DNA from: Escherichia coli
GTDB taxonomy: Bacteria; Pseudomonadota; Gammaproteobacteria; Enterobacterales; Enterobacteriaceae
NCBI RefSeq assembly: GCF_017348835.2
Contig: NZ_CP071375.1
Strand: one strand, 5' to 3'
DNA: 64,000 nt
Numbering within the stretch: position 1 is the stretch's first letter; each line of letters starts with the position of its first letter. Under the pieces are notes generated by a model. That model was not told the DNA's origin. It was given only the letters and a program-made list of their open reading frames with translations, and made no database searches. This document shows positions 43,736 to 44,835 of the stretch, piece after piece. Made by a program: the position numbers and the translations under genes.

Positions 43736-44835
43736 TTAGAACTGATAGGTAATGCCCGTTGCGACGATGTTATCGGTGCGAATATCTACGGCACGGGTAA
43801 AGTCGCTTTCATCAATCAGGTTGATTTTATAATCAACATAGGTCGACATATTTTTGTTGAAGAAATACGTCGCACCAACGTCGATATACTCAATCATGTC
43901 CTGGTCGCCGTAGCGGCCCAGATCTTTGCCTTTCGATTTCAGGTAAGCGAGTGATGGGCGCAAGCCGAAGTCGAATTGATATTGCGCCACCACTTCAAAA
44001 CTTTGTGCTTTGTTAGAGATATAACCATCCCCATAGGTGGTCATGTTTAATGTTTCAGCGTAATTAGCTGCAAAGTAGATGTTGTTGGCATCATATTTTA
44101 TACCTGTGGCCCACAGTTCTGCATTCTTACCGGAGGCATTGAGAGGATTAGCAGCGGCTCTTTCCTGCGCATTTGTCCGATCGGATTTGGTATATACCGC
44201 ACCGATACCAAAGCCATCATAAACATAAGTTGAGGAGATACCGAAACCGTCACCGTTGGCACGCGTGTAGTCAGCACCATAAAGATGACTGTTGTCAGTA
44301 CGTTCATTTTTGCCTTGATATTGCGCGGCAAAGTTCAGCCCTTCAATTAAGCCAAAGAAATCGTAGTTGCGATAGGTTGCTACACCGGTGGTACGGTATG
44401 TCATGAAGACATCTTTCTGACTCCAGGTATCGCCACCAAATTCTGGCAACATATCGGTCCATGAACCAATGTCATAGCCGACACCGTAGTTACGACCATA
44501 GTCCAGAGAGCCAAATTCACTAATTTTTAAACCAGCATAGGCCAGACGGGTCTTGTTGCCGCGCGAGCCGTTGGCTTCATCGTATAGCCTTTAAAATCAT
44601 ATTCCCAGTGACCAAAACCAATCATTTGATCATTGATTTGCGTTTCTCCTTTAAAGCCGAGACGGGCATAAGTTTTATCACCATCGTCACGCTTATCATC
44701 AGTAAAATAACGTAGAGCGGTAACCTTGCCATAAAGGTCGAGTTTATTACCATCCTTGTTATAGACTTCGGCAGCGTGTGCTACGTTCGCAGCTAACAAA
44801 CCAGTTACAACCACCGCAACTATTTTTAATTTCAT
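43736..44835 (-). pseudogene. yddL: OmpC/OmpN-family porin gene disrupted by frameshift
   Basis: N-terminal signal plus porin start (ORF 44527-44835) and porin C-terminus ending ...GITYQF (ORF 43736-44452) lie in different frames. Confidence 0.7.

Follow-up and report, generated by a model that had tools for sequence, protein, structure and literature searches.

Gene content of the locus

The window (the whole 64,000-nucleotide stretch of Escherichia coli DNA that was analysed) carries on its minus strand, at 43736-44835, a single 1100-nt porin gene that is divided between two open reading frames (ORFs) in different frames, as is apparent from both the ORF list and direct reading of the DNA. 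Neighbouring genes in the window are yddG (45094-45975), fdnGHI (from 46207), two LRR genes (42307-43572 and 40991-42265, the second of which is espR1), and narU. Features of the porin gene and its immediate flanks are collected in Table 1. The gene belongs to O-island 62, where it lies between yddG and narU beside the LRR/EspR1 genes, and is of the Z2239 type. In EDL933, this island comprises the porin gene Z2239, the split LRR gene Z2240/Z2241, and espR1 (Z2242), while the counterparts of the porin, LRR, and espR1 genes in EAEC 042 are orf1601 to orf1599 (PMC3079680). The identity of the island is also evident from genome annotations. A search of the literature on the yddL/Z2239 porin returned no experimental work, only this island description and a purely computational guess that relates yddL to osmotic stress (PMC9976479).

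Table 1. Coordinates of the porin pseudogene and associated features in the window.
Feature	Position	Strand	Description
Whole porin pseudogene	43736..44835	-	1100 nt, compared with 1101 nt/366 aa in intact alleles; Z2239/EC042 orf1601 type
5' ORF, 102 aa	44527..44835	-	21-aa signal peptide, 63 native mature residues, 18 out-of-frame residues
Signal peptide codons	44773..44835	-	Cleavage before AEVYNK; from alignment with the K-12 OmpC, OmpN, OmpF, and PhoE precursors
Frameshift site	44582..44584	-	T-A-C in the window, T-A-A-C in intact alleles
3' reading frame	43736..44590	-	Rest of the barrel: L3 PEFGGD motif, constriction residues, C-terminal ...TYQF
238-aa ORF	43736..44452	-	Internal ATG start, no signal peptide; contains LPEFGGDTW and ends ...GITYQF
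Intrinsic-terminator-like hairpin	43701..43724	-	GACCAGCCC...GGGCTGGTT then TTTGATTT; 9 pairs, 6 of them G-C; consensus match
AT-rich intergenic region, yddG/porin	44836..45093	-	GC content about 0.34

The porin gene is flanked by candidate expression signals. A Shine-Dalgarno sequence (AAGGA) is found at 44845-44849, and putative promoter-like hexamers (consensus-level matches, for example at 44910..44881) are located upstream of the gene. The terminator-like hairpin lies 12 nt past the porin stop codon and, because of this position immediately after the stop, the gene looks monocistronic. An Rfam scan of 40000-47000 identified nothing at the porin gene, the only hit being the SECIS element of fdnG.

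The fdnG gene itself (46207-49254, plus strand) appears as two ORFs of 195 aa and 803 aa with an in-frame TGA (46792-46794) between them. The Rfam SECIS_3 model matches at 46789-46847 with a score of 84.3 bits (gathering score: 63). This TGA is a selenocysteine codon with its SECIS element, and fdnG is not a pseudogene.

The first LRR gene (minus strand) is an intact 421-aa ORF in the window (419 aa from the ATG codon) that is 94% identical to the orf1600 region of EAEC 042; the same gene is in two pieces (Z2240/Z2241) in O157:H7. The PGAP annotation of PE164, F2_81, 042, and TUM13936 reduces this gene to an 'incomplete' 288-nt fragment though the ORF is uninterrupted, which suggests systematic under-annotation. 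Certain members of the frameshift lineage described below (L013, L016, and L017) have the gene broken into two ORFs.

The GC content of 40800-44800 and its flanks is a mosaic: 30–38% in the LRR genes, about 44–46% in the porin gene, and 45–55% in the flanking genes yddG, fdnG, and narU. In addition, strain TUM13936 encodes an identical porin protein, yet differs from the window by 70 mismatches over the 4.2-kb porin-plus-LRR stretch. These two observations suggest either separate histories for the parts of the island or recombination inside it.

The genes of this locus in K-12 are yddL, yddK, and yddJ. Similarity between K-12 and the window porin ends at window position 44556 and resumes at 43020 in the first LRR gene; a second gap spans 42054-42688. 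Judging from this alignment, yddL is a 5' stub of the Z2239-type porin gene, left behind by a deletion. Compared with the window (gaps at 43021-44555 and 42054-42688), BW25113 yddL/yddK looks like the product of two deletions in the ancestral island, one running from porin nt ~281 into the first LRR gene and the other from the first LRR gene to espR1, with overlaps of 12 nt and 20 nt at the junctions. If two deletions did occur, YddK would be a chimera of residues ~185-295 of the first LRR protein and residues ~74-424 of EspR1.

Structure of the split porin gene

An earlier note, prepared from this sequence alone, described a porin N-terminus with a signal peptide (44527-44835) and a porin C-terminus ending in ...GITYQF (43736-44452) in different frames. 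Both ORFs are present exactly as claimed, on the minus strand, and alignment with intact alleles traces the change of frame to one missing base. The note had bracketed the break between 44453 and 44600 and proposed an alignment to OmpC/OmpN to place it more precisely: the comparison with intact alleles locates a 1-nt deletion at 44583/44584, inside the bracketed interval. Its description of a frameshift-disrupted porin gene adjoining LRR genes also agrees with RefSeq, in which PE164 and F2_81 have the same allele under the name 'porin OmpC, frameshifted'; the CDS so labelled in both strains matches the window pseudogene with 100% identity.

Each of the two ORFs matches the Pfam family PF00267 (Porin_1) in precomputed hits. 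In an alignment of precursors, AHA|AEVYNK of the 5' ORF is in register with ANA|AEVYNK of OmpC, so that the product has both a Sec signal peptide and an AxA cleavage site; the exact position of cleavage is the one established for OmpC. The 63 native mature residues of the 102-aa ORF correspond to about the first four beta-strands. These are followed by 18 out-of-frame codons with no resemblance to a porin and then by the stop codon of the 5' frame (TAA, 44527-44529). An uninterrupted ORF for all 16 strands is absent, as the window copy stops after 102 codons.

The frameshift was placed by aligning positions 44480-44660 with O157:H7 FRIK804, K-12 BW25113, and PE164. The O157:H7 and K-12 alleles share the intact sequence TATAACGAT, which has become TATACGAT in the window with the loss of one A, and PE164 and the window share TAT-ACGAT. 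The remaining A at 44583 is nt 253 of the gene, in codon 85 (AAC, Asn). Asn85 of the precursor is residue 64 of the mature protein and aligns with N69 of mature OmpF, in loop L2. From 44590, the 3' frame runs without interruption to a stop codon at 43736-43738, and the C-terminal aromatic beta-signal (...GITYQF) is present in this frame only.

When the missing A is re-inserted, the gene encodes a 366-aa protein that is 100% identical to the intact protein WP_000768395.1 of TUM13936 and 99.5% identical to the O157:H7 and EAEC 042 proteins. In a global alignment of the whole gene with the closest intact allele (that of TUM13936), there are two differences: the missing A and a synonymous A/G difference at 44096. 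As the deletion and a single synonymous SNP are all that separate the two alleles, the pseudogene must be very young. The window copy is a pseudogene of the enterobacterial general porin family and not a working member of it.

A break of this kind could also be a regulated switch, with programmed ribosomal frameshifting or phase variation allowing some full-length porin still to be made. The two frames do overlap by ~60 nt (44590-44527), and a -1 shift in this region would in principle restore the protein. Direct reading of the overlap (44527-44590), however, found neither an X_XXY_YYZ slippery heptamer in the zero frame nor a repeat tract. Furthermore, the wild-type state is a plain ORF: the 38 next-best full-length matches all span 1101 nt (38/38), which is the intact length, and the shifted allele is limited to one small lineage, most sampled carriers having the uninterrupted 1101-nt gene. 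We rejected a programmed -1 frameshift because the overlap lacks a slippery heptamer and carriers normally have the unshifted ORF. These comparisons support neither recoding nor phase variation, and we assign the two together a negligible probability.

Porin family membership

Residues 22-366 of the repaired protein align with residues 2-345 of OmpK36 (E = 8.7e-127). OmpC (2J1N) is matched over its full length with E = 6e-126 and OmpF with E = 1e-117; taken as a group, the solved structures of OmpK36, OmpC, OmpK37, PhoE, and OmpF match the whole mature length with E values of 1e-127 to 1e-110. At ~60% identity to solved porins, the fold is uncontroversial, and the perfect match of the repaired product to an intact annotated protein, together with these end-to-end structure matches, means that chance similarity is not an issue. 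In an alignment with the K-12 porins, the residues that correspond to K16, R42, R82, R132, D113, and E117 in OmpF numbering are all kept, as are the PEFGGD motif of L3 and the terminal Phe. The intact product thus carries every sequence hallmark of a 16-stranded trimeric porin of the OmpC/OmpF type. The constriction residues and PEFGGD are encoded mostly downstream of the frameshift.

The earlier note had also named OmpC/OmpN as the sequences with which to align the gene, but it is an orthologue of neither. Identity to each of these proteins is 62% (compared with 60-61% for OmpF and 59.5% for PhoE), and the locus is different: K-12 ompC lies between apbE and rcsD (apbE-ompC-micF-rcsD), whereas the window gene lies between yddG and narU. 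A candidate assignment as an ompC or ompN orthologue was rejected on these two grounds. The PGAP name 'OmpC' derives from an NCBIfam model of the subfamily kind that the protein passes narrowly, with 495.8 bits against a cut-off of 484. The prophage porin clade of NmpC/Lc/OmpD shows 68-72% identity and is the sister group of the window porin in a neighbour-joining tree that comprises few taxa and has no bootstrap values. Its sequence relationships make the gene an accessory member of the classical porin family, a paralogue separate from the others and nearest to the prophage porin compared.

Database names for this protein vary: the intact form is called 'porin LC' or 'OmpD' in some databases. 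Its 90%-identity cluster has as representative a 603-aa LepA (elongation factor 4) and includes several other LepA members, which looks like an oddity of indexing or cluster ids in the protein collection rather than biology. The 72% identity to the 'OmpD' moron of a lambdoid phage (PhiR34_1, 2501-3583) hints at a recent common origin of the island and prophage porins.

Conservation of the deletion

Single-base deletions are a typical error of long-read sequencing, and few of the complete genomes with the gene show this one; it could accordingly be proposed that the gene is truly intact and that a base was dropped at a short run of A, as the earlier note had cautioned in naming a homopolymer error. 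The site itself argues otherwise, being an AA dinucleotide rather than a homopolymer and lacking Dam and Dcm motifs. A probe of 85 nt that spans the deletion site matched 4261 genomes. Four records fall in the band of at least 99% identity (two of these are not among the matches listed and may be partial), and the remaining 4258 are below 99%. Among the matches listed, only the complete genomes of PE164 (pig, China) and F2_81 (pig, Australia) match the probe at 100% with full coverage, such that the deletion is shared by two complete genomes from different continents. Over 13 kb, there are 3 mismatches between the window and PE164 and 2 between the window and F2_81; the window is separate from both and, given so few mismatches, represents another independent sequence from this lineage.

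Public collections (NCBI, ENA, and Logan) list 25 contigs with exactly this 102-aa product, 24 of which were read. Of the eight loci fetched, three come from NCBI drafts, four from Logan assemblies of SRA/DRA runs, and one from an ENA metagenome assembly. The same deletion is present in every one (8/8), with 0-8 substitutions from the window per 3.5 kb and a few SNPs separating them from one another. In total, the deletion recurs in 10 independent assemblies beyond the window. Its presence in two complete genomes and in every fetched locus effectively excludes a homopolymer or read error, to which we give only a very slight chance, and makes the resequencing proposed in the earlier note unnecessary. 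On the strength of these independent assemblies of one lineage, the deletion is effectively established as real and inherited in that lineage.

Distribution of the porin gene in E. coli

Among 5426 complete E. coli genomes, the full-length gene is found in 1111 (20%), only the 5' 345-348 nt (the yddL state) in about 3160 (58%), and none of it in about 1150 (21%). The porin is thus dispensable, and its loss has taken several routes. Genomes that keep the whole gene almost always have it intact: of 59 genomes in a spread sample from outside the frameshift lineage, all with the 3' part of the gene, 57 have no net indel in that part.

The two exceptions, in which this porin was disrupted independently, are SCU-482 (NZ_CP053247.1), which has a 5-nt length change and a gene annotated as two 'porin' pieces, and strain 144 (NZ_CP023364.1), in which only 22% is left, the last 181 nt of the gene.

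The cause of the loss is a separate question from its molecular nature. Porins are classic receptors for phages and colicins. It is conceivable that the knockout was selected in this pig-associated lineage, the porin having served phages or colicins as a receptor, antibiotics as an entry route, or the immune system as a target, rather than arising by neutral decay; the molecular outcome would be the same pseudogene and the cause alone would differ. Such selection would be in keeping with this receptor role, with the several independent losses (the K-12-type deletion in ~58% of genomes, the 5-nt indel of SCU-482, and the truncation of strain 144), and with the spread of the frameshift lineage to pigs in China and Australia and to further SRA and ENA samples. 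The near absence of net indels in the 3' part among the other genomes sampled (57/59) nevertheless argues against a general pressure to lose the gene, and the decay of the neighbouring LRR gene in some lineage members fits relaxed constraint on the whole island. We regard adaptive loss as possible but unlikely.

The breakpoint of the yddL deletion is only 27 nt downstream of the frameshift in the window. That the barrel is repeatedly lost while the promoter, signal peptide, and about four strands are kept might reflect selection for a functional exported N-terminal fragment or for removal of a phage/colicin receptor, a notion that we consider quite improbable. A selected fragment could act, for example, in envelope-stress signalling or by interfering with the assembly of other porins.

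Proposed origin and consequence of the break

The gene is very probably a pseudogene that formed recently from an accessory general-diffusion porin of E. coli and has been inherited clonally, and no evidence contradicting this reading was found. Loss of one A from codon 85 in this lineage would cause translation to leave the porin frame in loop L2 and to reach a stop codon 18 codons on. The only product with a start codon, a ribosome-binding site, and a signal peptide would be the 102-aa precursor, which is predicted to contain ~4 of the 16 strands and to lack both the L3 constriction loop and the C-terminal ...YQF, the aromatic signal that the BAM machinery recognizes for insertion. No pore should form from this fragment, whose presumed fate is degradation in the periplasm. 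The 238-aa downstream ORF, having no signal peptide, would have no route to the outer membrane. The cell would simply be without an optional porin, like most E. coli, in which a deletion has removed it.

This is an ordinary lineage-specific pseudogene that is already annotated. Both the accessory porin and the genomic island that holds it are known, and the importance of the pseudogene extends little beyond annotation. The frameshift is genuine and characterizes a single E. coli lineage, with members from pigs of two continents, for which it could serve as a marker. With respect to naming, what PGAP calls 'ompC' here is an accessory porin in its own right, with a relationship to the prophage OmpD/NmpC-like porin, and K-12 'yddL' is its 5' stub. 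Depending on the E. coli strain, the porin is kept, truncated, or frameshifted. If the intact porin is expressed in EHEC/EAEC, it could be of relevance as an antigen, a receptor for phages, or a route by which antibiotics enter.

Comparison with known porins

The closest counterparts of the window porin are Z2239 (EDL933) and orf1601 (EAEC 042), which have the same locus order (yddG, porin, LRR genes/espR1, narU), the same upstream region and terminator, and 99.5% amino acid identity after repair; the window copy differs in its 1-nt deletion in codon 85. In K-12 yddL, by comparison, a ~1.5 kb deletion joins the porin gene at nt ~281 to the first LRR gene at its middle. The island has previously been suggested to be 'disrupted by insertion of yddK' (PMC3079680), an account from which our two-deletion interpretation of K-12 yddK differs.

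OmpC, OmpN, OmpF, and PhoE (2J1N, 1OPF, 1PHO, and OmpK36 6RD3) have in common with the window porin full-length homology, a signal peptide, PEFGGD, the six constriction residues, and the C-terminal Phe, but their identity to it is 59-62% and they have another locus and other loop sequences. The closest relative found is OmpD of Escherichia phage PhiR34_1, with 72% full-length identity. The PhiR34_1 gene lies between antiterminator Q and the S-R-Rz lysis cassette, whereas the window porin is in a small chromosomal island: no phage genes were found beside it, and it does not occupy the moron position between Q and lysis genes. K-12 nmpC is a cryptic porin gene disrupted by IS5. It too is an accessory porin paralogue that has been inactivated in a particular lineage, but by IS insertion, whereas the inactivating event here is a point frameshift.
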